Shown here in pieces: positions 8,271 to 50,799 of a stretch of 64,000 bases of DNA. The DNA lies in the NCBI RefSeq assembly GCF_035083965.1, contig NC_089740.1, positions 9,044,596 through 9,108,595 on the forward strand, read 5' to 3'. Below the pieces are notes generated by a model, which was not told where the DNA came from, did no database searches, and worked only from the letters and a program-made list of their open reading frames with translations. The stretch comes from Branchiostoma lanceolatum (taxonomy: Eukaryota). A program made the position numbers and the translations under genes. Position 1 is the stretch's first letter; each line of letters opens with the position of its first letter.

Positions 8271-8284
8271 GTCAGTCTGAAGAA

Positions 8285-8500
8285 GGCATTTTTGACACCC
8301 ACACTCACACACATACACACAGTGATACACAAATACACACACACATACTCACAAATACACACACACAAAAAACAACACAACAGATATACAAACACACGCA
8401 CACACACACACACACATACATGTACACACAAACACACGCACACACAAACATGCACACACATACACACACAAGCACACACCCTAATGAACATGATAAACAT
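8285..8500. repeat. Imperfect CA-rich compound microsatellite in TXNL1 intron 2
   Basis: acacacacatacacacagtgatacacaaatacacacaca... Confidence 0.85.
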
Positions 8501-8830
8501 AGACAGGGTTTTTTCTAGAAAAATCAAACAAGAGGGAGCACACACAGGCGAATGAGTGAATTCTAGGTCTTTATGGAAGAATCGATCGCTGAGGGAAGGC
8601 TGTATGCTGGGGATTTAGCTAAAATCTGAATTTGACAAGGGGGTGCTGGGCTGAAACAAGAGGGCGCAGCGCCCCTCTTTCCCAATTTAGATGAACCCCT
8701 GATAGAAACATACACACATACAAAACTTCACATACACTTATATAGAAAACAAGACCTTCTTATTAATGAAGACGATAAATACATTTAGCCTAATATCAGT
8801 AATATTCCCTTTTCCAATGAACATCTGCAG

Positions 8831-14100: not shown

Positions 14101-16768
14101 GATCTTATGCGATTACATCTTTCCGTTATGGATGCATACAGTAGAGTGGTCTGTCATAACTTCTGTCACTGACAGATGATTTAGTCTTAAACATTTTGAA
14201 AACGCTGTTTTGAATCAAGTATGCGCGCTTTATAGTTTTATTGCTGTTATAGAGGCCACGTGACCTTTAAATCGTCCACTCCAAATGATTAGTTACCTCT
14301 TAGCGTGCTTACGTTTACCCAACTATTACTTCGTCCTGAACCAAAGAACGGCAAAAGTTCTTGCATTGTGAAGTAAAAAAAATCCAAATCCCACCGCTGC
14401 CACTAGTGTAAAAAACGTGTCTATTCCCCCGCTGTCTGTTCAACTGAAAACAGGACAGACCCGATTGATGATGTCTCTGCTTTTTTTTATTCATAACCAT
14501 GAACGTTTGTGAGGTAACTATGACCATGTAGAGAAGGCAAGACATTTGATAGTTGACCGGATCCTGTTGACCACTAAAACATATTGCTGCCGTAGGATTG
14601 ATCCTATTAGATTTCATAAAAACTACGAACGCCGCCATTTTGTTGCCCGAGTCCGGTGGACCGAGGTCCAAAGTTTGTGTTTGTCGTACCATTTGGTCCC
14701 CCGCCGTGACTGGTTATCGATAAGGGCATTTATATAACCGATGACCTTCACAATTGTTATCGGCTGCCTAAGAAACGATTTTTTTAAACCATTGTCGTTG
14801 ATATTGAAATTGAATGCTTAGTAGTTATGTACGTCATCGACGATTTTAGATGGTCGGATTACCATAGCTGAGTTTTGATTTAAACACGACTTACTCGCTA
14901 ACTCATACTCTTGCAAGTGGTGCGCAGAGCCAACATAACTTTCAAATTGTGAAAATGATCTTCATCTTTACGATATCTGCCAGACATCGCCCCAATGCGC
15001 CCTCACATTGCATCATCTTAGGTTGCGTGGATGATGCAGTTGTTTCTGTAAGTTTAGGTCCATGTCTTGTTGGTGCAACCCCTACACCGGCCTCTTTTTC
15101 ATAAGTGTCCTCATTCTACCCATCAATTGCTTGTTGAATAAAACACGTCACTCACTCGGTAGTTTATGAGGTGGTTATAGGGACTGACCATACCTTATGT
15201 TTCGTATACACCAACGGGCGGATCATGAACACTGTATACATACAACGTTAGATTAATACACAACGCATGGCAAATCAATCTAACAAGCCATGCCATTGAT
15301 ACGAGTACAGATCTAGAGGTGCAACGACATCTCGAAATATCGGGGTTGGAGATATACCAGCTGCAACATACTAAGTGGAATATATTTGAAAAAAAATGTA
15401 TCCACATGGCACATGCAGGTCTAATGATCAAACGTTTACTTTCAGTACAATATCAGATTGTTACACCTCTTCCAGATAGCAGTGATAGCTTTAGGAACCT
15501 CTCATTGGGTGTACATGTCACAATGTCAAATTCCTACACGTTCGCATCTCATTATTGGTAGTATAATCACTACAACCCTGACCCTTTCACATACGTGTAG
15601 CTTTTCTCTGTCAAGTGTTAAAAGTTCATTTAATTTGTCGCCCAGAGAATGTGCTTGCTGTATTGACTCATTGATACTTATCCGAGGGAGGCGTAAACCT
15701 TTGTTCAGGCTGAGGGATTGTGTTGTCAGCAAACAGTATTGCTACATGCGTGAATAGTTTCATCAGGTTGGTAGATCACTGGTAAACAAGGCTGTTTAGA
15801 CAGAACCAATGTTTTTCACCTGCCGACGTTTATTTTTTGTGACTGCCTGCCACCTTTCCTCGGGTCAATAATGACTGGTTCTACTTCGAACTGCAGCTAG
15901 GTGTCGCTGCTGTGGGACGGATGCGGTCCCAAACGAGTTTGTGTCCCCTCATGATTCGTAGATTTTACCAGTAGATATTGCCATGAGAAAGATGGCTTGC
16001 GACCTCCCGAAATGTCAGAAAACAAAGAAACTAAATGTTGTATGTAAAGAATTTTCCATTATTGCTACATTGCGAGATGGGATTTAGGGATTTAGTAGGA
16101 TGACTCTTTGCTCATTACATGACAAAAGTGGAGGTCAAAGAGCTAACATTTGCTAGCAAACGGAAAACTTTCGTACCCAACGCTTCCAAGAATATCCTGA
16201 ATATTAGTGCTACAATTCGGGTAAAAGTAGCTAGAGTGCGGCATTGCTACATTATAACTTGCGTTAATCATTTACTATTTGTACTTCTGGAACCTTGCGA
16301 CGACGTACTTGTATAAGTTGCCAATTGTATAACATACATTTGTATATATCATATGCAACATTTTTAGTTGCCCGTCTCATAAAATTGCTTCAAATGTCAG
16401 TAACCAACATTTCCAAAAAGAGTTCAAGGATCTCATACCTCAGTTAGATATACAGATTTTCCCGTAAGTCTTGTTTAGTTCTAATTCATTGATTATGCAA
16501 ATACATTTTTGATTGACAGTATATGTGTCCATTGATTGCTTTCTGTCACTCTACGGTGAAAGTATCATATGGAAAGTATGTAACCGTGAAAATACAGACA
16601 AGCAGAAAGACCAAAAACAACATATTAGTATCGTCTTCCATTGGAATGTCTGCCAGCTGTCAGATAAGATAGATAAATAGCTACTTCTACCAACTTTGAG
16701 CTCCATTTCCTGTTACTTCGCAATTATACCCTTCACTTCATGCCACTTTCATGTCACAGGTACACAAG

Positions 16769-26807: not shown

Positions 26808-27212
26808 TCACTTTTCCGTGTCAGAATATGTGGAGTCGTCATCTTCCTTTTCCATATTTGACAGCCCATACATAAGTCCATTGGATGCCGCCTGGTCGTC
26901 ATAGCAACCCTTCTCCACCTCTTCGCACAGCGCATGCGTGCTATCAGTCTGCTCTTCACTCATTGGTCCTTGCGTGAGATTGTTGTCATGACAACTGTCT
27001 GTAGAGCCGTTCACGATCTGTAGAAGACCTGGGTCTCTTCTCAGACCCTCGATAAACTCCCGCAGAATGAGAAACCCGTCTTGGTCGCTGTCAAGACGTT
27101 CGAAAATCTTCTCTGTCACGTCCTGGATGTGGTCCTCTCGTTCCCGACGTTCCTGGGCCTGCAGCAGTTCGTCGATGTTGGTTTCTTGAGGGAGTCGGAT
27201 GTCCTGAAGAAA
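26808..27212 (-). CDS. NCS-family EF-hand protein terminal exon: FLQDIRLPQETNIDELLQAQERREREDHIQDVTEKIFERLDSDQDGFLILREFIEGLRRDPGLLQIVNG..., plus a ~65-aa acidic Ser/Asp/Glu-rich tail, then stop
   Basis: Minus strand. Acceptor tcttttttattttgcag|TTTCTT. The 4th EF loop DSDQDGFLILRE and the segment REFIEGLRRDPGLLQ resemble NCS-1 QEFQEGSKADPSIVQ. TGA stop at 26808-26810. Confidence 0.7.
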   Translation of the reverse strand, partial: FLQDIRLPQETNIDELLQAQERREREDHIQDVTEKIFERLDSDQDGFLILREFIEGLRRDPGLLQIVNGSTDSCHDNNLTQGPMSEEQTDSTHALCEEVEKGCYDDQAASNGLMYGLSNMEKEDDDSTYSDTEK

Positions 27213-28044
27213 CTGCAAAATAAAAAAGACATGTTAGTGTTTTCAGTCTGTGTGATATTTTGTTCTGTGTGTGTTATGTTCGATTCATGGATTCGATTCT
27301 TGGCATTCCCGGCTAGACGTTGTGTCCTTTGCAAAGACACTTTGCACGACGTTCCTCACTTCACGCAAGTTTGATACTTTGAGGAGTTGAAAGGCAGCAG
27401 ACGGAGAGGGATGGGCACCACCTTCCGACAAGGTGGGTTGTTATCTATAGCCCCCTACATGCAGACACAGAGGATAACGGCCCACCGCCCCTACGCCCTC
27501 TAAAACGCTACGGGACTACATTTACCTTAACCTTTTTATAACCCCATCCAACAGAGTCGTGTGACAAGCTCACATATAGCAGCAACGTTTGAAGTTATAA
27601 CAAATATCCTATAGTCACACGACTGCAACTTCCGTACTGATAGCTCTCTAACATTCTGACATTCTGCTACTGCCTTCTGGTGCCCCTTTGCCATTTTGAG
27701 TGCGTCCAAACTGAATCGTCCGCCATACTCGAAATGGCTCCATTAGGTACCCACGCCTGCTGGGAGTCTTTTAGAGTTAGAGTTTTCCCCCTAGCTTTTT
27801 GCAAATGCCATGCTTGGGGTAATGTAGATGTAACGTACAGAGAACGTGGTGTAATGGAAGGGGTAATGAATGTCGATACACGGCCAGTGCATCAGCCTAG
27901 TGGGTAGAGTGCTCGATCGCATACAACCCCGACTTTATAAATGGTACCTAACTTCTTTAACTGATCAGTACTCGGGACTTATTGGAAAGAGTATGGTAGT
28001 TGTCCAGTTAGCAGTCTTGTCAATGATCAGCCATGATTTTAACA

Positions 28045-28070
28045 CAGACGCACATACACACACACACACA

Positions 28071-28120
<50 letters not shown>

Positions 28121-28132
28121 AACACACACACA
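28045..28132. repeat. (CA)n compound microsatellite
   Basis: cacatacacacacacacacagacacacaca... Confidence 0.9.
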
Positions 28133-30310
28133 TGCATCGTTTCCAAGAAACATAGGAATAGACTTTTCACAAAATTCCTGCCCTTGTTACTTTGTATCTA
28201 TTGATTGCTCTGGTAGGTAGTTTGACACCGTTTCCCTCAATAACTAAAGCAGTTGGATTTCTTCCGATGGCATTGTTATGGATGAATTAGCTCGTTAAAA
28301 TCTATGATTGATTGCCCTTTCAATGATAGTCTAAAAGTCATTTATCATCGCAGACATGGATCACAAAAAGTGCTGAAGGTCTCTGACACAACACTTCGTT
28401 ATATTAGAAGCCCCCTCCCCCCAAGACACCCGACGCATTTTCACTAGGAGTCCTTTTCGCACCTTCCAATGCATCTCTACTCAACAGGGACGACACCTTT
28501 TGCTTTCACTATCCCATTGAAGGTCGTTTCATCAACCCCCGACATTTCAATAAGATTTTTTGCAGCACTTCACAAAATGTTAAAGTGTCTAGAGGATGGT
28601 AAGTAGGCGGCACTGTGGTGCTGTGGTTCGGAATATTGACTTAGAATCTAAAGGTTCTTAGTTTCAATCCCTAGCGGGCACGAAGGTTATGCAATTGGGA
28701 AAAGAACTTAGCACCTATTCCCACAGGTTAAGAGGCGTACCTGGCCCTGGTTAGAGACGTAATCTCGGATGGGACGCCAAGCTGGAGGTAACGTGTTTGA
28801 GTAGAGCAACATGACGAATCCACTACACTATTATTGAAAAGAGTAGGACGTGCTTGGATCAAACCTTACAGTCCGGTCTTACCTAGCTTGTTCTTCCTTA
28901 TTGTACAAAACTGGTGTTTTATGCCTTAAAGCAGATTTATTGATTATGCGAAAAAACAAATTAAACAAACAAACGTTTGCTCAATCTTCTGTAACAGTCT
29001 ATAGAATATGAGTAAACAGTGATACAAAAATCAGAAAAATTATATTAAGTTTGGGACTATAGGAATTAAGGAATTTCATTCAACAGATTAAAGATCGCGG
29101 ATTAGTATCAAATATATCAACTAACTAATGAACATATAACGACACATTTTTCATTTTGATTTTACGAGTGTCGCACAGACCACAGCGTAACCATCAACGC
29201 AAAAAAATAAATCACTCTCTTTCATATCGTCTCTTGTTTTGTCACTTTTATTGCTGTAACAAGCTTTCTCTTCCAGATTTTATGTGGCACGACAATCTAA
29301 ACCACCCGTGTTGAACTTTGAACCCCCGAGTGCTGTTTAATATTGGCGTGTGGGTGTCTGTATTTCCATGGAGTGCTGCAGGCGTTCGGTACAGTCAGTC
29401 TTAAGGGATTGTCTAAGTGCGAGAGGTTTGCCGAGTCAGCCATGTACTCTTGTTGCCAGAGGTGCCCGGAGAGCTCGTTAACAACAAACTCCTTCATCAA
29501 AACAGCAAACATTTTGACACCACTCTGTGGTAAAGTGCCTTACTGATGATTTAAAACCTTGACAAGCCCATATTTTGTTGGTTAAAGAAAGCCACGTTAT
29601 TAGAGAGCAGTGTTTCCATCGTGAAATTTGTTCTTTAGCCTGGTTGATATGATAAATAGGCACTAAGGATCAGCAGGCTTGTTAAAACTGCGACCTAAGG
29701 TGTGCGGGTCAGCTTTAGGACTCTACTCTGCTTAAAGTCAATGACCTACTTCTTTGTTGTTGAAATGAAAAGGAATTATTCACGCAACATTTTGACAGTG
29801 TTTTTTTTTAGGATTCACAAACATGAAAAGCCGAAAACGACCCAAGCATTTCTAGTTAGTCCCTTCCTGGAAAAAATTCTCACCTCTTCTTACAAATATA
29901 CTTGAAAGTGAAGTGACAATTTTATTACTTCTGATAAAAAAAGTAATAATAACATCGTTACTCCGCAGAGGGGTAAAGTGTATAGCCACCTACAACATTA
30001 ACAAAAGACGTACTTGGTGTTTTCCAAACGCCCGCGGGAGATTGAAACGGCGAAACCCTTTGATCACTTTGCGTCGTTCCAGCCTGTGATTGAAGGAAAT
30101 AACTGAAATCATAAATTCGCGTTTGTTGCAGGCGGATTTGTGAATATTCATATCTCCGATTAATAAGACGCGTAGCAAAGCTACCTTACATCGCGTCGCC
30201 GCCACCGCGGTTGGTTATTTAACATCCGCTCAAAATAAGCACACAGCCAGCCTGTACCACACAATCTCTCGCTGTCAGGGTCCTGTCAGACCGTCAGGCC
30301 AGTGCACAGC

Positions 30311-30447
30311 ATGGCGACAGTACGCTGCGTTCAGCTTCTGTGCGCGAGTCTAGTGATCTTTTGTACCGACAAGATCGTGGCAGGTGCCAGTGATGTCATC
30401 GGGGAGAAAGGCGGCTTGCCCACAGACTGTGCTGCTGTGAAAAGCGG
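30311..30447 (+). CDS. Fibrinogen-related-domain protein A, exon 1: MATVRCVQLLCASLVIFCTDKIVAGASDVIGEKGGLPTDCAAVKS(G), signal peptide
   Basis: ATG plus a hydrophobic signal peptide. Donor GG|gtgagt. Confidence 0.7.
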
Positions 30448-30494
30448 GTGAGTTTTATAGAAGCATTTAGAACTGTCGAGAATATTGATAACTA

Positions 30495-30665
30495 TGCGTG
30501 TCTCGGTGTCCACGTGTATGTGGATGTGTGTGTGTGTTTGTGTATTTGTGTGTGCGCGCGCGCGCGTGTGTGTGCGTATGTGTATGTTTGTTTATATGTA
30601 TGTATGTGTGAGTATCTGTGTGTGCGTGCGTGTGCATGTCTGTCTGTCTGTTTGTGTGTGTTTGT
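30495..30665. repeat. Imperfect (GT/GTGC/GTAT)n microsatellite in intron 1 of FReD gene A. The paralogous tract in gene B is at 33960-34100.
   Basis: gtgtatgtggatgtgtgtgtgtgtttgtgtatttgtgtgtgcgcgcgcgcgtgtgtgtgcgtatg... Confidence 0.85.
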
Positions 30666-30781
30666 ATTGAATCATTTATCATTATTTGTTCAGTCACGAA
30701 AATAAATTCGAACGTTATGATCTAGTCATATTGTAAACCGGGTCAACTTAATTACGACACCACTGTTCGCCTCTGTTTCAG

Positions 30782-30939
30782 GACTTGGAGCTACACCTTC
30801 CGCACACCTGCGGGTTTTCTGGCCGCGACGCATCTGCAGCGGCCCCGAGCCACCTGCGAGCAGCTGAAACAGCACCTGGAGACAGCCGGAGGGATGTTGG
30901 AACAGACCCAGATGGTCCTCGAACCTCCGGAGATGAAGG
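30782..30939 (+). CDS. FReD protein A exon 2: (G)TWSYTFRTPAGFLAATHLQRPRATCEQLKQHLETAGGMLEQTQMVLEPPEMK, linker
   Basis: Acceptor ctgtttcag| and donor G|gtagga. The frame is supported by paralogue comparison: 2 synonymous and 2 nonsynonymous differences against copy B in this frame. A longer antisense ORF overlaps this exon and is rejected. Confidence 0.6.
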
Positions 30940-31313
30940 GTAGGAAAGGCCAACATATCCTCCTGATGCAAGATAGACTCGTACTCTTACGGGCTAAAGC
31001 TAAAAAAGCTTGGATGCCAGGCTATGTACAAAGCTTTCATCATTTCAATAAAAGTGATTGTAGCACTCGTTTGATTACACCAAAAGTTAGGACCAAAATC
31101 ATATTTTTATTGAGCTATTTTATTGACAATCCTCACTATACAAACGCTTTATTTTATCTGGAAAGGGTGACGACGCACTGGTAAATTGTGTTCTAGATGT
31201 ATTTGATTGCTTATCTTTGCAATGTATAACGGCACCGTGGAAAAGGGTAGTACTCCTATAGTGTCATAGTGTTTAAGCTTGAAAGCTAACGTATTGATTG
31301 CTTTGTTCTCCAG

Positions 31314-31960
31314 ATTGCTCGGCCATTTTCCATTGGTTGAACGGGAAGGCCATAAGCGGCGTGTACAACATCCGCCCGGCGGGGGCAAACCGAACCGTCC
31401 CCGCCTACTGTCGCATGGCAGGTGGTGAAGGCTGGACCGTGCTACAGCGGCGTCAGGACGGCTCCGTCGACTTCTTCCGCACCTGGGCCGAGTACAAGCG
31501 CGCCTTCGGCGACCCGGCCACGGAGTTCTGGCTCGGCAACGACAACATCCACCTCCTGACCAACCAGGCTGGGTACAAGCTGAGGGTGGACTTGGAGACG
31601 TGTGACGGGAAAGCGACCTACGCCCAGTACAGGATCTTCTCCATCGCAGACGAAGCCTCGGCCTACAAGATGACGGAGGCGGCCGGCTACAGCGGAACCG
31701 CCGGCAACGCTTTCTTGCGACTCAAGGGTAATCCCTTTATCACAAGGGACAGGGACAGCAAGACCAAGATAGCCAGTAAGTTTAGAACCGCGGGGTGGCT
31801 ATACAGGTGGACTGTAGGCAACCTGAACGGCGAGTACTACACTCCGCAAACCGCGCCGACCAAAACCAAAGGGTTATCCGGAATGAGGTGGTACACGAAC
31901 AGATTTAAGTTCCCCTTAGTGAAGTTTGTTGAGATGAGGATCGCCCCTAACAATACATAA
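31314..31960 (+). CDS. FReD protein A exon 3: fibrinogen C-terminal globular domain (DCSAIFHWLNGKAISGVYNIRPAG...GWTVLQRRQDGSVDFFRTWAEYKRAFGDPATEFWLGNDNIHLLT...VEMRIAPNNT*)
   Basis: Acceptor tctccag| in phase 1. Classic FReD motifs are present: DCxxI start, GGGWTVxQRRxDGSxxF, EFWLGNDxIxxLT, NLNG and a C-terminal EM(R/K)I(A/R)P. The spliced protein is 313 aa. TAA stop at 31958-31960. Confidence 0.85.
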
Positions 31961-32984
31961 ATGTTGTTTCGAGATTTTTGACGTCAGGGTATGGTCACTT
32001 TCGTCATACGATTGGTTGACAACTACACTAAATCATGTTCGTAGACGTGTTGTACAACATGCAGCTGTCTTGTGAGGTTGTCGTGGATCCTTGTCAACGA
32101 CCGATTCTTTCACAGCTTTGCTGAAATTCTACGACAAAAACGACGAAAGTGACCGTGTACCTGTACCCTTTGCCTTCTGTAGTACAATGTATAGCCACAT
32201 TGTCACTTACAATCTGTTTTTACTAGAGGCTGCGACCATGCTGCGACCACTCAGCGACCAAAGATTTTACAGATAGCTCAACAAATTTCATGGATAAACT
32301 ACACATTTTCTGACATTTTGTGGGGTTTTACTGTCTGTTAAATTACCCATTTAAATCTTGCATCATATTCCACTATAAAATCAAGGTATACAAAAATCCA
32401 GTGTTGGTCGCTGTACCGTTGCTCAGCGATCGCGAAGAAGCAGAATATCCCTAGTAACTTCTAGAGTTTCAAATTTTTTTTTTTTTAGGGAGCTATCTGC
32501 ATACAGTGGCTACACTATGTAAATGAACGACCAGTATTTAGATGCTGGGAGAATGTTTCGCTACCGTATACACCGTTCTGCTTTGGTAGACTTCTTCATC
32601 ACGCACAAAGTGAAAGCGTTGTGGTAGACCAATTTACTTGGAAATTGGAAATATTTTTCTCTTGATGGCTAACATATTTCATGAGTAAATCCGTCCTGTG
32701 TTATTGCATTCCGTAGGTCTCAGACATAATGTGCTGTAGCACATCACAGAAACTGAAGTATTTAGAATTCTAATTGTTGTCGGGAGTATGCCTGATGTTT
32801 TCTGATATTAATCAGGATTACGTGAAAAAGTGTTCCCATGGCTTTCAGTCATTGTAACGCTAATATTGATATCAAGCATTGATAAAGATAAGGCACCTTG
32901 ATCATGATGAGTCAACTTGTTTCCGATGTGTTTACTTTGAATACAACTCACTGATCTACATGCGCTGGCATGAACATGTGCACA

Positions 32985-32995
32985 TGTGTGTGTGT

Positions 32996-33045
<50 letters not shown>

Positions 33046-33052
33046 ACGTGTG
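32985..33052. repeat. (GT)n microsatellite at the junction of the two FReD duplication units. The paralogous tract is at 36495-36585.
   Basis: Long perfect GT run. Confidence 0.9.
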
Positions 33053-33713
33053 TATTCTCGAAATTTGAGTTATGCCAATTGCTTACGAGCCGACTGCGAC
33101 CTGAGGTGTGCGGGTCAGCTTTAGGACTCTGCTCTGCTTAAAGTCAGCGACCTACTTCTTTGTTGTTGAAATGAAAAGGAATTATTCACGAAACATTTCG
33201 ACAGTGTTTTTTTTAGAATTCACAGACATGAAGAGCCGAAACTGGCGACGCAAGCATTTATAGTTAGTCCCTTCCTGGAAAAAATTCTCCCCTCTTCTTA
33301 CAAATACACTTGAGAGTGAAGTGACAACTTTATTACTTCTGATAAAAAAGTAATAATAACATCGTTACTCCGCAGAGGGGTAAAGTGTATAACCACCTAC
33401 AACATTAACAAAAGACGTACTTAGTGTTTTCCAAACGCCTGCGGGAGATTGAACGTAACCCTTTAATCATTTTGCTTCGTTCCAGCTTGTGATTGAAGGA
33501 AATAACTGAAATCATAAATTCGCGTTTGTTGCAGGTGGGTTCGTGCATATTCATATCTCCGATTAATAAGACGCGTAGCAAAGCTAGCTTACATCACGTC
33601 GCTGCCACCGCGGTTGTGTATTAAACATTACACACAGCTAGCCTGCGTCACACAAGCTCTCGCTGCCAGGGGCCGGTCGGTCGGCAGCTAAGGCCGTCGG
33701 GCCAGTGCACAGC

Positions 33714-33838
33714 ATGGCAACAGCACGCTGCGTCCAGTTTCTGTGCGTGAGTCTAGTGATCTTTTGTACCGGCAAGACCGTGGCAGGTGCCGGCGACGTC
33801 ATCGGGTGGTCTACAGACTGCGCTGCCGTGAAGAGCGG
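33714..33838 (+). CDS. FReD protein B, exon 1: MATARCVQFLCVSLVIFCTGKTVAGAGDVIGWSTDCAAVKS(G)
   Basis: Paralogue of the exon at 30311. It is 12 nt shorter. Donor GG|gtgagt. Confidence 0.7.
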
Positions 33839-34201
33839 GTGAGTTTTTGTCGAATTATTTAGAATGTGAACTAACTATGCGGAATATTGATAGAAGGGAA
33901 ATGGAAGACGATTGATTTTTACCTCTCCTGAGTGCCTGATACATTTATCATGGTACATTAAAGTGTGTGTGTGTGTGCGTGTGTTAGCGTGTGTATGTGT
34001 ATGTGTTAGCGTGTGTGTGTGTATGTGTGCGTGTGTGTGTGTGTGTTAGCGTTTGTGTGTGTGTGTGTATGTGTGTGTGCGTCTGTGTGTGCCTGTTTGT
34101 GCGTATAGTTATGTATCGTTATTTGTTAAGTCAATAAACTTAGTTCAAAAGTAAGGACTTGGTAATGTTGGTGACACTAGTAGTGTCCGCTTCTGTTTCA
34201 G

Positions 34202-34359
34202 GACCTGGAGCTACACCTTCCGCACACCTGCGGGTTTTCTGGCCGCGACGCACCTGCAGCGGCCCCGAGCCACCTGCGAGCAGCTGAAACAGCACCTGGA
34301 GACAGCCGGAGGGATGTTGGAACAGACCAAGAGGGTCCTCGAACCTCCGGAGATGAAGG
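34202..34359 (+). CDS. FReD protein B exon 2: (G)TWSYTFRTPAGFLAATHLQRPRATCEQLKQHLETAGGMLEQTKRVLEPPEMK
   Basis: Same splice sites as paralogue A. Confidence 0.6.
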
Positions 34360-34765
34360 GTAGGAAAGGCCAACATATCCTCCTGATTTAAGATAAACTC
34401 GTACCCAGCCTTCTTACGGGCTGTAGCTAAAAAAATGTCTGAATGCCAGGCTATGTACAAAGCTTTCATCATTTCAATAAAAGTGATTATAGCACTCGTT
34501 CGATTACGCATCTAGCATAGATGCAATTTCACCAAAAGTTAGGATCAAAATCATATTTTCATTGAGCTATATTATTGACAAGCCTCACTATACAAACGCT
34601 TTATTTTATCTGAAAAGGGTGACGACGCACTGGTAAATTGTGGTCTAGACGTATTTGATTGCTTATCTTTGCAATGTATAACGGCACCGTGGAAAAGAGT
34701 AGTACTCCTATAGTGTCATAGTGTTTAAGCTTAAAAGCTAACGTATTGATTGCTTTTTTCTCCAG

Positions 34766-35424
34766 ATTGCTCGGCCATTTTCCAGTGGTTGAACGGGAAG
34801 GCCATAAGCGGCGTGTACAACATCCGCCCGGCGGGGGCAAACCGAACCGTCCCCGCCTACTGTCGCATGGCAGGTGGTGAAGGCTGGACCGTGCTCCAGC
34901 GGCGTCAGGACGGCTCCGTCGACTTCTTCCGCACCTGGGCCGAGTACAAGCGCGGCTTCGGCGACCCGACCACGGAGTTCTGGCTCGGCAACGACAACAT
35001 CCACCTGCTGACCAACCAGGCTGAGTACAAGCTGAGGGTGGACTTGGAGACGTTTGACGGGAAAGCGACCTACGCCCAGTACAAGATCTTCTCCATCGCA
35101 GACGAAGCCTCGGCCTACAAGATGACGGAGGCGGCCGGCTACAGCGGAACCGCCGGCACCGCTTTCTTGCGACTCAAGGGTAAGCCCTTCATCACAAGGG
35201 ACAGGGACAGCAAGACCAAGATAGCCAGTAAGTTTAGAACCGCGGGGTGGCTATACACCTCGTATTCCGGCAACCTGAACGGTGTGTACCACACCCCGCA
35301 AACCGCGCCGACCAAAACCACCATGATCCTCGATGCTATCAGGTGGTCCCGAAGGAAAACATACGGATCTAAGTTCCGCTTACTGAAGTTTGTTGAGATG
35401 AGGATCGCACCTAACGTTACATAG
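34766..35424 (+). CDS. FReD protein B exon 3: fibrinogen C-terminal globular domain, with a divergent C-terminal about 50 aa (…AGWLYTSYSGNLNGVYHTPQTAPTKTTMILDAIRWSRRKTYGSKFRLLKFVEMRIAPNVT*)
   Basis: Acceptor tctccag|. The frame matches the ORF track (34750..35424). The spliced protein is 313 aa. Confidence 0.85.
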
Positions 35425-36525
35425 ATGTTGTTTCGAGATTTCTGAAGTCAGGGCATGGTCACCTTCGTCATACGATAGGTTGACAACTACGCTAAATTAT
35501 GGGCGTAGAGTTGTAGACATGTCGTACAACATGCAGCTGTCTTGTGAGGTTGTCGTGGACCCTTGTCAACGACCGATTCTTTCACAGCTTTGCTGAAATT
35601 CTACGACAAAAACGACGAAAGTGACCGTGTACCTGTACCCTTTGCCTTCTGTGGTACAATGTATAGCCACATTGTCATTTACACCCTGTTTTTACTAGAG
35701 GCTGCGACCTCGCTGCGACCGCTGAGCGACCGAAGATTTTACAGATAGCTCAACAAATTTCATGGATAAACTACAAATTTTCTGACATTTTGTGGGGTTT
35801 TGCTGTCTTTTAAATTACTTTACATCTTGCATCATATTCCAATTATGAAATCAAGGGATACACAAATCCAGTTTTGGTCGCTGTACCGTTGCTCAGCGAT
35901 CGCCGTAGAAGCTGAATATCCCTAGTAACTTCTAGGGTTTGAAAATGTTGTTCTCTTTTCTAAATTTTTTTTTTTAGAGAGCTATCTGACCACACTGTGT
36001 TCTATGTACGACCGGTATTTAGATGCTGGGAAATGTTTCGCTACCGTATACACCGTTCTGCTTTGGTAGACTTCTTCATCACGTACAAAGTGAAAGCGTT
36101 GTGGTAGACCAATTTACTTGGAAATTGGAAATATTTTTCTCTCCATCTTGCTTGATGGCTAACATATTTCATGAGTAAATCCGTCCTGTGTTATTGCATT
36201 CCGAAGGTCTCAGACATAATGTGCTTTAGCACATGACAGAAACTGAAGTGCTTGGAATTCTAATAGTTGTCGGGAGTATGCCTGATGTTTTCTGATATTA
36301 AACAGGATTACAGGAAAGACTGTCGGAGAAGTGTTGACTGTTGTAACGGGTGTGTTTCCATGGTTTTCAGTCATTGTAATGCTAATATTGATATCAAGCA
36401 TTAATAAAGATAAAGCACGCAGTGGAGTCAACTTGTTTCCGATGTGTTTACTTTGACTACCATTCACTGTGCTCGTATGACCATATCTGTGCGCATGTGC
36501 GTGTGTGGTTGTGCGTGTGTGTGTG

Positions 36526-36574
<49 letters not shown>

Positions 36575-37154
36575 ACGTGTGTATGCTCGAAATTTGAGTT
36601 ATGCCAATTGCTTACGAGCCGACGTTTCGGTGGCCGTCTGTCGCCTTTCTCTGGGCAATACTGACTGGTCCCATCCCACACTGCAGACTAGGTGTTGCTA
36701 ACAGTGCGGTCCCAAACGTTAAGTATTGTCATATATGCGGTTATCCAGTGATTTTTAAATCTCATTCACGGAATCAGCTTGGCTTTGCAATAAACAAACA
36801 AGCTGCTAGGGGGCCCAAACCTACACCACTTCTTCTTTACATTACAAGCTACCTGCCACCAAAAAATCAAGACCATAGCACGTCAAGGTCAAAGGATGAA
36901 AAAAAGGAAGTTCTGCTGCAATACCAAGGTCACATACTAGGGAGCCCAAAATCAACCTTGACCTTTATCTTCCCAACACTTACCCACATACCAAATGTCA
37001 TCATAATCCGCCCAGAGATTCTTGATTTATGCTGATTACAAAAATCCGGAAACACACACAAACAGACACACACGCCCAAAACTATATCTCCATTTTTATG
37101 GAGATAACAACAAGCGAGTCAAATAAACACAGTCACGTTGATGTTTTGACCCAC

Positions 37155-37346
37155 CGTGAGCACGTTGATGAGTTCCTTCTTGCTGACCGTCCCGTCGCTG
37201 TTCAGGTCGAAGATACAGAATGCCCACTTGAGTCTCTCCATGGGGGTTCCCCGCAGCATGGCGGACATGCCGCACAGAAACTCCCGGAAATCCACGCAGC
37301 CGCTCGCGTCGCGGTCAAACGTGTGGAAGATTCGTCTGGCCAGGAT
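37155..37346 (-). CDS. NCS-family EF-hand protein exon: ILARRIFHTFDRDASGCVDFREFLCGMSAMLRGTPMERLKWAFCIFDLNSDGTVSKKELINVLT (EF-hands 2 and 3)
   Basis: Minus strand. Acceptor attttacag| and donor ACG|gtgggt. Two canonical EF loops (DRDASGCVDFRE, DLNSDGTVSKKE) are spaced as in NCS proteins. Phase 0 at both ends, continuous with the flanking exons. Confidence 0.75.
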
Positions 37347-37419
37347 CTGTAAAATATCATGTATAAGTTAAAGGGTTAATGACCCACCCAAATTTGCTTA
37401 CACTGACATGATGCCTGGT

Positions 37420-37750
37420 CAGTGACCTATAACCACTGAATAAGCCACCGAGAGAGCGAAGCGATGCAACCCCAGGGTCATTGACCTGTTGCTAATGATA
37501 GTCTATGATCACCAAATAAATCCCCGAGCGAGTAAAGGGATAGAGACTGATCAATGCCTTGTAACCACCGCATCAACTACCGAGTGAATGAAGCGATAGA
37601 GACTGACCAGTGACTTGTAACCTGCGAATAAACTACCGAGTGAGCGAAGCGATATAGCCTGGTCAATGACCTATAACCAACGAATAAACCACCGAGCCAG
37701 CGAAGCGAAGACAGCCAGGTTACTGACCTATAACAATTCAATAAACTATA
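37420..37750. repeat. Minisatellite, about 62-bp unit x 5 (..aataaaccaccgagcgagcgaagcgatagagactgaccagtgacctataacc..)
   Basis: Direct repeat visible by eye. It lies immediately intron-side of the NCS exon at 37346. Confidence 0.8.
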
Positions 37751-39130
37751 TGATGATACTGGTTTGGCTGTGGAATCACATGTACAATAGGACTGTCTAC
37801 TAAGGGCCCGGTCACATTCATCGTAGGGTCATCATACGATCGCAAACTTGGTGTGTTCGTACATGTGTAGTACAAGATTCAGCTGTCATGCTATAGAAAA
37901 GGATGTCTAATATCCTTGCCCGTTGTTGCTTTGGTTCTGTCAGTCTGGTTGGAAACTCTACGGCATTGACATCGTGCATTTTATTGTACAACGACCTATG
38001 AAAATGTGACCGCACTCATATATCAATCATACATTCAAACCTAAACTTCCTATGAATTGCTTTTCCTTTCAAGACTTTCCCAGACATGTACGAGCAAAGC
38101 AGTTCCCCCGTACTCTCTGATAAGTAGCTCAAATGCCAAGAGGAAATGTTGCTTATAAAGAATTGCCTTTGGCAGGCGCACCGCGTGGAGACGTCTTTCA
38201 TCAAGGATACCTTAATCCCTGAACCTCGTCAGGGGCACACACATCCATCAACACTGCGTGCCCGGACTAACTATCCTGAACATCCTTCAACGTCTGTTAA
38301 CATGGGGACCAATTGACTTTTTGAGTTGGTTCGTTAACTGTTGAAGATTGCTGTAATCCAGAGGTCTAAAGGCTATGTGTACATCATGTGAAGACCGTTT
38401 TGTTTTGCGTGAACGGATTCAGTTCTATGTTCAACGTTTTGTTCATAAGTTAAGTTGGCAAATTCAGCGGGAGAAGTCCTTGTTTTCGATTTTTGTTGTT
38501 GTTATCATCTTACATTGATTATAGTTATGTATGTGCGATGGTCACCAAAAAAGTAAATAGATGAAATTATTGAACTAAACAAAATGGGTTCGTATTGGAC
38601 TTCGTTCAGTCATTTTAGTTGCATAAAATGTTTGGGTGCATGAAAGTTAAGAAAATATCAAATGCAAGTCGTATTCGGTGCAAAAGACATAATTATCACT
38701 GGTTTCTATCAAAGATTTTCTCTTATACTTGGCATGTTTTTATTGCAATTTACGATTAGAGACGGAAAGACTAGACGCTGACTCCATTGTTTTCCCCCTT
38801 TCATAATGACGTTCCGTGCCTGCTGTTAATCGATAAAGACGCCAAACCTTAAATCCTACTAAAGAAGCTAATACTTTGGAACTAAACCCTGGGACTTAGA
38901 AAACTCATGAATACATTTTATATATAGTGGAAGTATTAAGTGGTATTAGTGTTGAGCGTTTTCATGCCAATCACAGAATACTGTATCGCTTGCATATTCA
39001 AGGAAGTGTGACGATATGATACATGTAGTGGAGCCGGGCAGCAGTGACTGCCTTAAATACACAAAAGCAGACAGTCAACTCATACATCGTACACAACACA
39101 CAGCAATAACAGTCATGAAAAGCCCATTAG

Positions 39131-39450
39131 ATAAGATAGAATTGACAAGTCCAGAATAGAATTGAATGAGATAGAATAGAATAGATTGAAATGTATTGGA
39201 ATGAAATATAATGGAATGCAATGGAATGAGCTGGAATGAACTGGAATGAAATAAAATAGAAGAGGATGGAATGAAATAGAATAGAATAGAATAGAATAGA
39301 ATGGAATAGAATGGAATGGAATGGAATAGAATTGAATTGAATGAAGCGGAATGGAATGGAACGGAATAGAATAAAAATGGACTAGAACAGAATAGAGTGA
39401 AATAGAATAGAATAGAATAGAATACAGTAGATGTAGAATAGAATAGTTCA
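39131..39450. repeat. Pentameric satellite (GAATG/GAATA/ATAGA)n, a GGAAT-type simple satellite of about 320 bp
   Basis: Direct reading shows gaatagaatagaatggaatggaatgga... It lies in the 5.9-kb intron of the NCS gene. Confidence 0.9.
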
Positions 39451-42314
39451 GATATTTGATCTGAGCCTAATCTGCGAGCAAAAAGATGATCATATTGAAG
39501 TAGAACTGATGCTTCGTGATAATAGTTCACTTTTAATAAAGTATAGCTGCAGTACGAGATAAATCATCGTTGCACATAAAGTCTCCTGGTAACGTTGGGT
39601 AACATAAATTCGGGATTTTTCCGATAATGGTTGACTGAAATCAATCTAGCAGAACAATAAACCATCCTTTTTTTCTATAATTCTGTCAGTATCATGTACT
39701 ATCTTTGCACTAATCATATATATGGTAGATTTTGTCTCTAGTCGTGCTGACACCATAATATTTCAACTTGAAACTACCGTCCGCCGCACGCACAATAAAG
39801 GTGCTGTCGGACAGGGGGGCACATTAATTCGGGAGAGAAGATTCGTCTTGAATATCTTACCGCTAATCACATTTTATACAGCAGCTATTCGTTCCATCCT
39901 TGGCTTGAGGAGAGTGCTATGGATATAGACGTGTCCAAGTAAAAAAAATACACGAAAAAACGGCCGTACCGCACACATCAGGCCAGTTCGGGAACAACCC
40001 GTGTGTTGAGTCGGTAGAACTTCACTCAAAGTCGGCCCATCGTCATCATCGGGCAACGTGTAACGTTACATTATTCATGGGAAGTTAGCTGGATGCCGTA
40101 GCAATGGTAATACTACTTTGTCCATGTGTTCCTTGTTGTGTTAGGAGCAAACTTTGAGGAAAATATCTTCCTCAGTCCACTATCACACGCAGCATTTAGA
40201 CAAAAAAGTGTTCCTCACACACCTTTGTCGTCTGCTTGACAACAGGATTCTGGTTAACAATATGGCGGCGGGAAAATACACGTGCCGTAGGTTGTAGCAA
40301 CAGAGAGGAGTTTTGATGATTGATCACACTTAGAATCCAGTTGCAGGTTAGCAAAAGAGATTGTAATAAGTTGTCTTGTAAATAATTGTGTTGAGCAGGA
40401 ATCGGATGTGACATTTTTCTTATAAACCAGCCGACAACCATGTTGTTTAAGTCTCCCACGAAGTCCTCAGACTGTTCCAATAAGGGACGGAGAGTTTTTG
40501 ACCTCGTCGCCTTATAATCCATGCTTATCGAAGCTTTTCAGACAGTGTTCTGAATACGTAAGTCTGGCAGGTTTGCATTTCTAGCGGTATTACTTATGTT
40601 GCATCTAGCACATATCCCTAAATACCCCGTTTTCGAAAAATCCCGAATTTAAGTACCCCGCGAATTTAGGTTACCCAACGTTATATACCACAAACACACG
40701 CTTTTACCCATCATAACTCACTGTCGTCTAGAGGAGATATGAAGCAATATAAAATATATACCCCAATCCCGAAACTGTACGGAATATTAACACAATCGTT
40801 TCCATCGCTACAGATTGATGACGAATGAGATTTGATGGTGATCCCAGCGGTGAGATTATTATCCATGTAATATAACTATAATCCTTTGGTGTTAAGGCTG
40901 CGTTAGACACATATGATTGTAAACAGAATTCATCTTGTATGAGATTAACAGTGAAAGGTTACTTCGGTTCGTGGCAAGTAAAGACACGATCAGATATACA
41001 GATAAGCGTCTACACGACTTGAAAGTGGCGTATCTATTTTAAAGGTTAAGTGCCAAAATATATAAATCAGTGACGACGCTGGCTAAACATTGTATATTAA
41101 CATAATGGTTTTGAATGGATTTGTTGAGTAATACACATTTTACAGTTGCCGTTAAATTATTTTTATGGGGAAAAGTAGGCGGGTCTTGACCATTATTTTC
41201 TACAGTCCATTATAAGGGCCAGAGTTCCATGCATATGATGTATGAAAGTACGTAAGAATGGCGTACCTTAAGGGTACGTTTTAGGCCCACTATCAGTCAT
41301 GTATGTACATTAATGACTCCCTTGGTATACACCGAGTGGTCGAAAGAGGGTCTTAAATCTCCACTTTGCGCACTATTCAGGCGTCGAGAAAATCCATTAC
41401 TACAAGTTAAGGTTGAAGATCTTACCGAAGGTTGAAGAGCCGATACCCACCACTTACAATCTCGTCCTAGAGAGCAAAATGTCTATGGCGCAGAGAAAGC
41501 TTACCTTACACTATGCAGCTTCTCTACATTTGCCTTTACTAGTATATGGTGGCAGATGAAGGAATGGCTACTTTAAGTACATTGACAACATCGGGAGACA
41601 TTCAGGTAGTAAGATACGCATGGTAGCAGTTACGTATTCAGCAACTGGATAGATTTGTAAACGATCAGACCTTTCAGACAGCAGTCGCTGGCGAAATACC
41701 GCGGATTTTGTCTGAAACGTCTGACCATTTACAAAAAGTATTCAGTTGCTTGTCTTGGATAACTTTTGCATTGAGTTCTCTCCGTAACGGATAGCCTTCA
41801 TGAACGCTCAGGTGTCTAACGGACGCAATGAAGAAATAACGACTCTTGTGGGATCAGGATTCGGTAAAAACTACAGCCAATGATGGATCGTCTCCATAAG
41901 CAGTTTTGTCCATAACCGGCGCAGGAAGGGCGCAATGTTCCCAAAGAGGTAAATCTCTGGACCTTAATAGCTTTATTAAACCTTGGTGATGGATGAAGAA
42001 AGCGGGCTTTCAGTCCCTTACCGTCGCAACCGACAGGAGAGTTGCCTGCAGCAGTACAATCACCTCACCAAACTTTCCAAGGGATGTGGCGTTTTCTTAG
42101 GTTTGAACGATTCTCGTCCAAAAGATGTTGTTATTCTTTACTCATAACAGCATCGATGTGTCTTTGCCATCTTTGTCTTCTGTGGTTTTCATAAAAGACT
42201 TCTAGCACGTTGTGTGTAGCATTAAAAAAATGCTCCATTAATTGTTTCATAAGGTTGGTAGGCTATTCCAATTGGGAAATGAGTGCCCTGGGAACCAGGC
42301 TTGGAGATCGGGTC

Positions 42315-42354
42315 GTTAACCAGTTCCTTTGGGCCGCCAAAGGAACTGGCTAAC
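42315..42354. other. Near-perfect hairpin/palindrome: 13-bp arms ccagttcctttgg / ccaaaggaactgg with a 4-nt loop, extendable to 17 bp with one mismatch
   Basis: Direct inspection of gttaaccagttcctttgggccgccaaaggaactggctaac. Confidence 0.7.
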
Positions 42355-43226
42355 GGCCCAAATCTGGTCTCAGGGTAGGAAATAATATTCTAGGGTTTCT
42401 AACCTTCACAACCTTGCGGCAAGCAACAGTATAGGTGACTGGGTCCAATAGAAGAGCGGCTGCGGAAACGTTGGCTAAGTCAGAAATTCTAGTTTGCGCA
42501 AACAGAAGTCAATTCAACGAGTTCTCTTTGAGCAACCTTCAATTCCTCAACGAAGTCGTGTCACCCACTGTTTGATCTCAGTGTTGCCGTGCCCATCGAT
42601 TTATCCATCTTGTTTGCGGGGGTAGCGACCGTTGGAAGCTAACAAGCATGGATTCGGGCAAGTGATCAAAGTGGTTCCACTTCTGATGATTTAGCCTAAC
42701 GAAGACAGTACAGCTGCTGACCAAACGCTTGTAAAGCAAGTTAACGTAAAACGAACCACATAACTCTGCGGCAAAATCTTACTTCTCTATGCTATTATTT
42801 CGGTATTGGCGAAATCGAGGTTACTGCAGTGGTGGAAGTCATTAAGCCAGGAAGAAAGTAGTGGCGGCTACAAGACATCAAATTAAAGAACACCATTCAC
42901 CAGATAAATACCCTGCTTTTATTTCAGTGTGACCGCAATCGAAGTGACTACATACAGTATTGGAATCTTGCTAGGCGCTCATGAAGACATTGAGTCGATG
43001 CAACGTATCGAATAAAATAACCTCTAGTTTGCGTTTAATTAAGAAATCCCATTCTCCAACAAAACAACCGGTACTCATCGCTCTTATTTCAGTAGGACCG
43101 CAATCGAAATGACTACAGTATTGGAATCCACTAGGCCCTCATGAAGACATCGATCGGATGTAAGGAATGAAATTAAGGAAACTCTAATTTGCATTTAATG
43201 AAATTCTCCAAAATCTCGGTACTCAC

Positions 43227-43376
43227 TGCTTTAATCTTGGCGTCGCCGTGCTCAAAGTGGTTACAGTAGAAGCTGACGAACTGACCCTCTGACAGTTGCC
43301 CGTCCGGACAGTCCGTCAGGAACAGTCGGTACCACTGTTTCACCTCCGCAACTGTGAAGTGAGTCACCCTCGCCAG
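43227..43376 (-). CDS. NCS-family (recoverin/frequenin/KChIP-like) EF-hand protein, internal exon: LARVTHFTVAEVKQWYRLFLTDCPDGQLSEGQFVSFYCNHFEHGDAKIKA (N-terminal pseudo-EF-hand region)
   Basis: Minus strand. Acceptor ctgcag|CTGGCG and donor GCA|gtgagt. Matches the NCS-1 pattern [44 protein letters not shown] as recalled. Confidence 0.75.
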
Positions 43377-44460
43377 CTGCAGAGGAAGATTAAGGCAGAA
43401 ACAGTAAATGAACAGTAAATGTCCGGACAGTCCGTCAGGAACAGTCTGTACCACTGTTTCACTTCCGCCACTGTGAAGTGAGTCACCCTCGCCAGCTGCA
43501 GAGGAAGATTAAAGCAGAAACAGTAAATAACCAGTAAATGTCCGGACAGTCCGTCAGGAACAGTCTGTACCACTGTTTCACCTCCGCTACTGTGAAGTGA
43601 GTCACCCTCGCCAACTGCAGAGGTTAAAGCAGAAACAGTAAATAACCAGTAAATGTCCGGACAGTCCGTCAGGAACAGTCTGTACCACTGTTTCACCTCC
43701 GCTACTGTGAAGTAAGTCACCCTCGCCAACTGCAGAGGTTAAAGCAGAAACAGTAAATAGACAGTAAATGTCCGGACAGTCCGTCAGGAACAGTCTGTAC
43801 CACTGTTTCACTTCCGCCACTGTGAAGTGAGTCACCCTCGCCAGCTGCAGAGGAAGATTAAAGCAGAAACAGTAAATAACCAGTAAATGTCCGGACAGTC
43901 CGTCAGGAACAGTCGGTACCACTGTTTCACCTCCGCTACTGTGAAGTGAGTCACCCTCGCCAGCTGCAGAGGTTAAAGTAGAAACAGTAAATAATCAGTA
44001 AATGTCCGGACAGTCCGTCAGGAACAGTCTGTACCACTGTTTCACCTCCGCTACTGTGAAGTGAGTCACCCTCGCCAGCTGCAGAGGAAGATTAAAGCAG
44101 AAACAGTAAATAACCAGTAAATGTCCGGACAGTCCGTCAGGAACAGTCGGTACCACTGTTTCACCTCCGCTACTGTGAAGTGAGTCACCCTCGCCAGCTG
44201 CAGAGGTTAAAGTAGAAACAGTAAATAACCAGTAAATGTCCGGACAGTCCGTCAGGAACAGTCTGTACCACTGTTTCACCTCCGCTACTGTGAAGTGAGT
44301 CACCCTCGCCAGCTGCAGAGGTTAAAGTAGAAACAGTAAATAATCAGTAAATGTCCGGACAGTCCGTCAGGAACAGTCGGTACCACTGTTTCACCTCCGC
44401 CACTGTGAAGTGAGTCACCCTCGCCAACTGCAGAGGAAGGTTAAAGCAGAAACAGTAAAT
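43377..44460 (-). repeat. Satellite of 9 tandem units (114-120 bp). Each unit is a truncated copy of the NCS exon (75 nt encoding LARVTHFTVAEVKQWYRLFLTDCPD) plus its ctgcag acceptor and about 40 bp of upstream intron.
   Basis: The motif gtccggacag recurs at 43421, 43541, 43655, 43769, 43889, 44003, 44123, 44237 and 44351. Two unit subtypes exist (...gcagaggaagattaaag... and ...gcagaggttaaag...). The array abuts the genuine exon, which is the last and only complete copy. Confidence 0.9.
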
Positions 44461-49619: not shown

Positions 49620-50520
49620 ACTACTCTGAGTTGTTTTCAAGATTTTGTGCCGTATCTTCTGTAGCTCAGAAGACGGTGGTGCCCGGTACGCGTGCTCAGA
49701 GTGCAAATTTCACCATACCTGAGTCAGCATTAACTTTGACCTAACATCTAAGTTACAAAAGCCTCATTATCACCAACTGTAAACAAACACACTTATCACA
49801 GCACTGTTTATTCTTATGCAGTTGACACGGTATTTTCAGCTGTAGAAGTCGGCGCTGCCCCATACTATACAACCCTAAACGTCAAAACCTCTTCCTATTC
49901 CGCCTCGACTGTTAAAAACCGCTCTGACAGTTCTATGAGTTCTCTGAGCGGTTTTGTGCTTGTTGACGTGATATCTAAAGTCACAGAAGACGGCGCTACC
50001 CCATACTAGGAGTTATTCAAGAAAGATGTGACTTAAAACGTAGAGAATTTCCTCTTGTTTCACCTTACCGGTGTTAGCATCCGTTTTGACTGTTCTCTGA
50101 ATCGGTTTTTGCGTTTGTTGCCGTGATTTCTTAAATCATAGAAGGCGGTGCGCATCAAACGTTAAACGTTAGAATTTCGTCCGTCTCACTTGTGCCAGCA
50201 TCAGTTTTGACTGATCTATGTGGCACTGCGATTTTTTGTGCTGAGGTGGTATGTATCTAGACTAAAGAAGGTGGTGCTATCCCATACATTGAGTAGCAAG
50301 AAAAAATGTGACTCAAGGCGTTAGAAACTTTTGTTGTTACATCTTACCTGTGCAAGCTTCCATGTTGACTGTTGTCTGAGCGGATTTTGTGTTTGTTGAC
50401 GTGATCTTAAATCTAAGAATGCGGTGCTATCCCTTTTTAGCGTACGAATCGACTCTAATCGTTAAAAAAAAAATTCCCGCCTTACCTGTGTCAGCATCCT
50501 CTTCGATTGTTCTCTGAGCG
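49620..50520. repeat. Tandem repeat, about 150-bp unit x 6 (core ..ttgactgttctctgagcggttttgtgcttgttgacgtgatatctaaagtcacagaagacggcgctaccccatac..)
   Basis: The core aga(a/g)g(a/g)cggtgct..cccatac recurs at about 49660, 49838, 49975, 50128, 50262 and 50412. Confidence 0.75.
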
Positions 50521-50799
50521 GCCTTTTCCCGTTATAGGTCCTCCTCAGTTGTGTCTTACACGTCTGCATGCGGCTTCCAAAACAGCCCATGCCTTCCGCC
50601 TCACCGCTGCTCCGTCTCTTATCTAGGATCCCCGTCACTCTGCTGTGCAGTCCGCCCATCCCGTGCCACTTCCTCCTCCTCCTGTGATATCACCGCACTC
50701 ACGTTAACGTCTCAGCTTCCCGATGTTCTCACCTCGCCGCCTTCAGGCGTTCATTTGCTCTGATTGCTCCGCAAATTCGCTTCCGGCACCCTCTTCCTG

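Follow-up and report, generated by a model that had tools for sequence, protein, structure and literature searches.

In the European amphioxus Branchiostoma lanceolatum, a neurocalcin-like gene of the NCS calcium-sensor family is host to two other genes. Both guests encode proteins with a fibrinogen-related domain (FReD1 and FReD2), both lie on the strand opposite to the host, and both fall entirely within the last host intron, with no overlap between their exons and those of the host. The stretch of DNA analyzed, referred to here as the window, is 64 kb long, and all positions are given in window coordinates (Table 1). We read the locus as an ordinary host-and-guest nested arrangement and put the probability of that reading at about 0.88. 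Given the E-values and the matches to public proteins at 100% identity described below, chance cannot account for the observation. The guests would be spliced out of the host pre-mRNA together with the intron, and the FReD genes are presumably transcribed from promoters of their own, which is indirectly supported by the upstream sequence duplicated along with each gene and by the purifying selection on both. An earlier note on this DNA had called the arrangement convergent, but antisense nesting without exon overlap describes the locus better.

The Host Gene

The host gene has four coding exons on the minus strand, spanning 26808-50659, and the spliced product is 306 amino acids (aa). That product differs from the BraLan3 proteins CAH1251874.1/75.1, annotated as 'NCALD', at a single residue (M31V), and the protein spliced from exons 2-4 is 100% identical over its full length to RefSeq XP_066270989.1 ('neurocalcin homolog, partial'). 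Exons 3 and 4, between which the guests lie, join in phase 0. The join (37155|27212) is present at 100% identity in XP_066270989.1 and CAH1251874/5, and the B. belcheri models likewise connect exon 3 to exon 4, with one of them using an acceptor nine codons downstream. The join is needed because exon 4 supplies EF-hand 4, completing the four-EF-hand core of an NCS protein. Among solved structures, the host aligns to neurocalcin delta residues 12-184 without a break across the exon 3/4 junction (E 1.1e-35), and the next relatives are hippocalcin, NCS-1 and the KChIPs.

EF-hand Pfam matches are found in the host protein. Exon 2 encodes the EF-hand 1 region including its disabling CPDG motif (DCPDG in the protein), while EF2-EF4 are canonical and read DRDASGCVDFRE, DLNSDGTVSKKE and DSDQDGFLILRE. 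Exon 4 encodes the linker between EF3 and EF4 and EF-hand 4 itself, followed by a 66-aa acidic tail that ends at the stop codon. The N-terminus, MGGLHS at residues 1-6, fits the MGxxxS/T myristoylation consensus, and from this match the host is putatively acylated. A second in-frame motif, MGCFGSR, occurs 23 codons after the first MGGLHS, at host residues 24-30 (window 50590-50570, minus strand). This motif looks like a signal for dual acylation, agrees with the MGC with which a paralogue (P0125) begins, and is a possible alternative start.

The phase 0 join of exons 3 and 4 had been proposed in the earlier note, and the two public annotations and the completed EF-hand 4 uphold it. The same note had suggested looking for an alternative NCS exon in the 27213-37154 interval; tblastn searches with the orthologue and with a paralogue revealed no such exon there. 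It had also ended the host at 43376, but coding exon 2 merely has its acceptor there; translation starts at 50659, which lengthens the gene by 7.3 kb at the 5' end.

The Guest Genes

The two FReD genes each have three coding exons, introns that are all GT-AG, and a product of 313 aa. Their matches to Pfam Fibrinogen_C (PF00147) are far above the cut-off of 22 bits, at E 6.1e-51 and 173.8 bits for FReD1 and E 5.2e-52 and 177.3 bits for FReD2, covering profile positions 3-220 of 221. Two complete opposite-strand genes of this structure are what the earlier note had drawn, and the profile search that it put forward as a check thus gives clear matches for both proteins. Each protein consists of a hydrophobic leader, a short Cys-containing helical stalk and a single FReD. 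Secretion of both is suggested by the hydrophobic N-terminal core and a predicted N-terminal helix. There is no collagen-like region: no Pfam collagen match was found, Gly-X-Y repeats are absent from residues 26-97, and residues 71-92 are predicted to be helical. The AlphaFold2 (AF2) model has a mean pLDDT of 82.7, rising above 90 over residues 100-260, and Foldseek aligns it to the tenascin, angiopoietin, ficolin and FIBCD1 domains with target-normalized template modeling (TM) scores of 0.87-0.91 and a root-mean-square deviation of 2.0-2.5 A. The predicted fold of both guests is that of a normal FReD.

FReD2 is identical at every residue to XP_066270844.1 ('ryncolin-1-like'), which is on the same 16.03 Mb record as the host model. 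Both public annotations include the host and FReD2. For FReD1, annotation is confined to the BraLan3 allele, CAH1251877.1 ('TNR'), which is intact; FReD1 may be unannotated in RefSeq. No further FReD fragments were found in the window besides the two genes.

A few residues set the guests apart. In the stalk helix of the nested pair there is Cys71 (ATCEQL; window ~30853 and ~34273), where all other members of the subfamily described below have Trp (ATWEHL). FReD1 has an unpaired Cys195 at a position that is Phe in FReD2, and the FReD1-specific positions include the segment RWTVGNLNGEYY...GLSGMRWYTNRF.

Table 1. Features of the nested locus, in window coordinates.
Feature	Position	Strand	Description
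NCS coding exon 1	50486..50659	-	encodes MGGLHSR...RMLTQ, then GTAAGG donor; located by tblastn with B. belcheri orthologue P0123
NCS coding exon 2	43227..43376	-	150 nt; phase 0; acceptor ctgcag, donor GTGAGT; 100% identical to P0121
NCS coding exon 3	37155..37346	-	192 nt; EF-hands 2 and 3; AG acceptor, GT donor
NCS coding exon 4	26808..27212	-	405 nt; last exon; AG acceptor; terminates at stop codon
Last NCS intron	27213..37154	-	9,942 bp; host of both FReD genes
FReD1 gene	30311..31960	+	CDS exons 30311-30447, 30782-30939, 31314-31960; 313 aa
FReD2 gene	33714..35424	+	CDS exons 33714-33838, 34202-34359, 34766-35424; 313 aa
Duplication unit 1	29687..33094	+	promoter region, FReD1, 3' flank; ends in (TG)n at 32977-33053; self-blastn, TRF
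Duplication unit 2	33093..36623	+	promoter region, FReD2, 3' flank; ends in (TG)n at 36496-36572; self-blastn, TRF
Tandem array, nine extra copies	43377..44460	-	units of 115 or 119 nt; whole array 43302-44460, 10 copies

Tandem Duplication and Selection

The two guests are copies of each other. They sit in two head-to-tail units of ~3.4 kb each that abut exactly at 33093/33094, and ~620 bp of upstream sequence was copied along with each gene. The identity between the units varies along their length. It is 92% in the upstream and downstream flanks and 87% in exon 1, reaches 95-98% between the start of exon 2 and nucleotide 450 of exon 3, and drops to 80% over the final ~65 codons, so that the end of the coding sequence has diverged more than the noncoding flanks have. 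By the Nei-Gojobori method, the ratio of nonsynonymous to synonymous change (dN/dS) between FReD1 and FReD2 is 0.57 overall and 0.83 in the C-terminal part (dN 0.23, dS 0.28), where it is indistinguishable from neutrality.

Both copies are also intact in the BraLan3 haplotype, where the order is exon 3, the FReD2 allele and the FReD1 allele. Comparing the alleles of this assembly and BraLan3 gives a dN/dS of 0.31 for FReD1 (p 0.005) and 0.21 for FReD2 (p 3e-5). Since both values are significantly below 1, both copies are under purifying selection. The duplication would have occurred in the B. lanceolatum lineage, probably through unequal crossing-over at the flanking (TG)n repeats, and later divergence of the copies would have been concentrated in the leader and over the ~65 residues that end the ligand-binding P subdomain.

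The Locus in Other Amphioxus

The phylogeny of Branchiostoma is [(belcheri + japonicum) + (lanceolatum + floridae)], with splits at ~87 and ~72 Mya (PMC6305399). In B. floridae, one FReD of 312 aa (P0005) is encoded antisense, 3.8 kb downstream of NCS exon 3. Beyond it, anchors match window 29598-29217, 28358-28200 and 26196-26012, in that order. The position of exon 4 is occupied by a run of 2,451 N (L003 1224-3674, CM022888.1). It is because of this assembly gap that the B. floridae RefSeq model (P0124) is truncated to 179 aa, ending by read-through of the exon 3 donor. We also considered loss of exon 4 in B. floridae and rejected it as unsupported, the N run being at the expected position. 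From the flanking collinearity, the B. floridae gene is probably nested as well.

In B. belcheri, the last host intron is ~7.1 kb, and it is collinear with window 27213-29778, the part proximal to exon 4. No FReD sequence was found in that intron. The tandem duplication of the guest is specific to B. lanceolatum. On the tree above, either the stem of B. lanceolatum and B. floridae gained the guest or the belcheri side lost it. The likely history would put one FReD gene in the intron in the ancestor shared by B. lanceolatum and B. floridae, or a loss from that intron in B. belcheri. For two other members of the subfamily (P0003 and P0006), no NCS exons were found within 10 kb, and those loci are unrelated.

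A Divergent FReD Subfamily

The best matches of the guests among solved structures are tenascin-R/C (E 6.5e-42) and angiopoietin-2 (E 1.5e-40), at 35-39% identity. Aligned to the tenascin-R and angiopoietin-2 domains, the guests have non-Cys residues at both P-domain cysteines and a 3-residue gap in the calcium loop. In an alignment of the top 120 database relatives, they belong to a clade from B. lanceolatum, B. floridae and B. belcheri whose members are 52-61% identical to FReD1. The clade shares loss of both P-domain cysteines, a calcium loop that is 2-4 residues shorter (by comparison with 100+ canonical sequences), and GWL in place of GWW. Both cysteines are replaced in all nine amphioxus relatives. 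A starfish protein (P0107) also lacks both, yet it keeps the canonical loop and GAWW. An exhaustive HMMER search over 1.84 billion representatives returned 14,893 relatives; among the 117 P-domain cores of the best 150 matches, the only ones with neither cysteine were the representative of this subfamily and one further B. floridae protein. The other cysteine pair, C100 and C131 of the A subdomain, does not vary among subfamily members and lines up with the canonical pair, and it would form the A-subdomain disulfide.

The structure of FIBCD1 indicates what these changes would affect. Its calcium site is made up of Asp393, Asp395 and the carbonyls of Ser397/Asn399; its Cys401-Cys414 bridge, with a cis-peptide, positions backbone NH groups; and its S1 pocket consists of Tyr405, His415, Tyr431, Ala432 and Trp443 (Trp/Tyr at 443) (PMC3908420). 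In FReD1, the Asp393 equivalent is kept as D246, while Asp395 becomes K248 and Tyr405 becomes F255. The equivalents of Cys401 and Cys414 are I251 and W264 in FReD1 and I and S in FReD2. His415 is replaced by T265 in FReD1 and by Y in FReD2. The region of Tyr431 and Ala432 is replaced by a longer TPQTAPTKT segment, of which TPQTxP after NLNG is invariant in the clade. Thus, none of the features of canonical acetyl binding (the P-domain disulfide, the calcium site and the S1 pocket residues) is intact in FReD1 or FReD2.

The motifs AGWLYRWTVGNLNG, AGWLYTSYSGNLNG and RDRDSKTK, to which the earlier note had drawn attention, are present in the FReD proteins. Its claim that the P-domain cysteine pair is missing is borne out by the alignment to canonical FReDs, and the trait is specific to the amphioxus clade. 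Its suggestion of a divergent subfamily is strengthened by the amphioxus-only clade and by the losses of the disulfide, of part of the calcium loop and of the histidine. Its statement that RDRDSKTK stands in place of the calcium site holds in that the site as a whole is noncanonical, but D246 survives there as the Asp393 equivalent, with Asp395 changed to Lys and 2-4 loop residues lost.

By these alignments, the guests belong to an amphioxus-restricted subfamily in which the P-domain disulfide is gone, the calcium site is incomplete and the histidine of the acetyl pocket is replaced. With these lost, acetyl recognition as in ficolins, FIBCD1 and tachylectin 5A is unlikely. The guests would most likely be secreted recognition or adhesion proteins with a different ligand. 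We offer one speculation, which we consider unlikely on balance. The subfamily may use a calcium-independent binding surface around the invariant NLNG-x-Y-x-TPQTxP, with the tandem pair diversifying it, as the last 65 codons at 80% against the flanks at 92% might reflect; or, as a second possibility, antisense transcription of the pair may modulate completion of the host mRNA.

The literature search returned no paper describing a Cys-less amphioxus FReD subfamily or a nest of FReD genes in an NCS gene.

Weight of the Evidence

Several points tell against an ordinary nest. The splicing of the host and the independent expression of the guests are probable on the strength of public gene models and of conservation. 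NCS exon 4 was not found in B. floridae even at word size 2, the expected site falling in the assembly gap. Gain and loss of the guest both fit the tree, which has no outgroup to polarize the direction. The loss of calcium and acetyl binding in the subfamily is likewise deduced from residues in an alignment and should be taken as likely. Finally, the exact FReD1 protein is missing from the protein collection searched, which does hold FReD2 and the host of the same RefSeq assembly, and no canonical AATAAA or ATTAAA was found in the FReD1 3' flank.

The last two of these points also bear on the alternative that one guest is a duplicate no longer working, being silent or in decay, with FReD1 the likeliest candidate. 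FReD1 in addition has no TATA-like match upstream, it carries the extra unpaired Cys195, and its C-terminal 65 codons have diverged from FReD2 at a rate not separable from neutrality. Set against this, its reading frame is intact and its splice sites are canonical in two independent haplotypes, BraLan3 annotates the gene, and its allelic dN/dS is significantly below 1. We regard a silent FReD1 as rather unlikely.

Another explanation would make the nesting functional. Antisense FReD transcription would interfere with elongation, splicing or polyadenylation at the last host intron and so tune the amount of full-length four-EF-hand sensor. Transcriptional interference by nested genes is known in other systems (PMC3192792). 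The arrangement is common to B. lanceolatum and B. floridae, and the B. floridae model that ends by reading through the exon 3 donor might look like its product. However, that truncation is accounted for by the assembly gap, no exons overlap, and the B. belcheri host has an FReD-free last intron, so the guests are dispensable for host function. Most nested gene pairs described are neutral arrangements. Functional nesting is therefore improbable. Nothing points to a functional coupling of host and guests, the B. belcheri host managing without them.

That the flanking NCS exons belong to different genes, with nothing nested, could be taken from the B. floridae RefSeq model stopping after exon 3, but that stop coincides with the N gap, exon 3 is joined to exon 4 in two independent B. 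lanceolatum annotations and two B. belcheri models, and exon 4 provides EF-hand 4 of a contiguous NCS core and has an acceptor with no upstream start context, making separate genes scarcely credible.

Local Duplications at Host Exons and Other Features of the Window

An ordinary nest thus remains our reading of the locus, and the rest of the host gene shows other duplications. Exon 2 is preceded by a tandem array (Table 1). In each copy, ~40 nt from the 3' end of intron 1 precede the CAG acceptor, which is followed by the 75 nt with which exon 2 begins; only the last copy runs on into exon 2. Tandem Repeats Finder (TRF) reports 9.9 copies at 94% identity. There are 10 copies here and 4 in BraLan3; in B. 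belcheri there is a single additional partial copy, and in B. floridae there are no extra copies. Over the exon-like part of 14 copies from the two haplotypes, 11 of the 13 distinct variants are synonymous (24% expected; binomial p 6e-6) and 2 of the 13 are nonsynonymous. Our best guess is concerted evolution of the array with the functional exon by unequal exchange, and it is conceivable that array copies are used in some isoform. The array accounts for the RefSeq host model being incomplete at its 5' end and running through a repeat unit. The BraLan3 ranges could be taken for two adjacent 306-aa NCS genes, a non-nested tandem pair. We rejected this candidate, since tblastn finds a single gene, with exons bracketing the array and then the FReD genes.

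Degenerate copies of the 3' end of exon 2 (YCSHFDCG.TEI.A) occur in intron 2 at ~43076-43120 and ~42914-42952 (minus strand), just past the real donor; therefore, there has been local duplication at both ends of exon 2. Intron 2 has two further repeats, at 37524-37746 and 39153-39446: tandem units of 56-57 bp (~3 copies) and an AGAAT-type satellite of 5/35 bp (~58 units). In B. belcheri (L002), three partial copies of the exon 4 acceptor and 5' end lie upstream of the real exon 4 (29364-29446, 29558-29635 and 29742-29806), and a partial copy of exon 2 with its own acceptor lies at 16233-16298. A public B. belcheri model (P0122) takes in such duplicated exon pieces.

Elsewhere in the window, two exon-sized open reading frames match other families, a mitochondrial pyruvate carrier (PF03650, E 1.9e-24; 6665-7006, minus strand) and a thioredoxin (PF00085, E 4.8e-08; 8016-8555, plus strand). 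They belong to neighboring genes unrelated to the nest. A search of the window with Rfam at gathering score and for tRNAs found zero RNA genes.

Significance

Antisense nesting as such is common, the host and FReD2 are already in public annotations, and the nest raises no new question about genome organization. What the locus offers is a clean and datable case of nested-gene evolution, in which B. lanceolatum and B. floridae have a guest that B. belcheri lacks and the guest later duplicated at its site. It also brings to light a previously undescribed amphioxus-restricted branch of FReDs that lacks the structural elements that ficolin-type lectins use for ligand binding, which is a caution for inferring lectin function from a domain name alone. 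There are three by-products: the RefSeq host model is 5'-partial, FReD1 is apparently missing from the RefSeq proteins, and the truncated B. floridae orthologue is an artifact of a gap.

Comparison with Known Systems

The host resembles neurocalcin delta, hippocalcin and KChIP in its four-EF-hand core, its CPxG-disabled EF1 and its MGxxxS N-terminus, over an alignment of 186 residues. It differs in length, at 306 aa against ~190 aa for classical NCS proteins. It also has a 57-aa N-terminal extension containing a second MGCxxS motif, an EF3-EF4 linker that is 13 residues longer, and the 66-aa acidic tail.

The guests have the Fibrinogen_C domain and fold in common with the ficolins, FIBCD1 and tachylectin 5A (target-normalized TM 0.86-0.90), along with the predicted A-domain disulfide and the FxTxDxD and NLNG motifs. 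The short N-terminal stalk is as in tachylectin 5A, whereas the collagen region of ficolin is absent. Unlike in these lectins, Cys401 is replaced by Ile/Lys-type residues and Cys414 by Trp/Ser. Tenascin-R/C and angiopoietin-2, whose domains are the most similar to the guests in sequence among solved structures, bind proteins rather than sugars. They keep the P-domain disulfide and the calcium loop, however, and their FReDs end large multidomain or coiled-coil proteins, unlike FReD1 and FReD2.

As for the arrangement, ~6% of Drosophila genes lie within introns (PMC3786989), and 5-14% of vertebrate genes overlap (PMC2151771). Two nests are close parallels. Drosophila 2mit lies in an intron of timeless2 (PMC3786989), and the LRRTM genes lie in introns of alpha-catenin genes (PMC3933685). 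In both, as here, a complete gene on the opposite strand is contained in one intron of a host gene to which it is unrelated, and the presence of the nest varies among related lineages. The B. lanceolatum nest is unlike them in that the guest has been tandemly duplicated inside the intron, and in pairing a calcium-sensor host with FReD guests.

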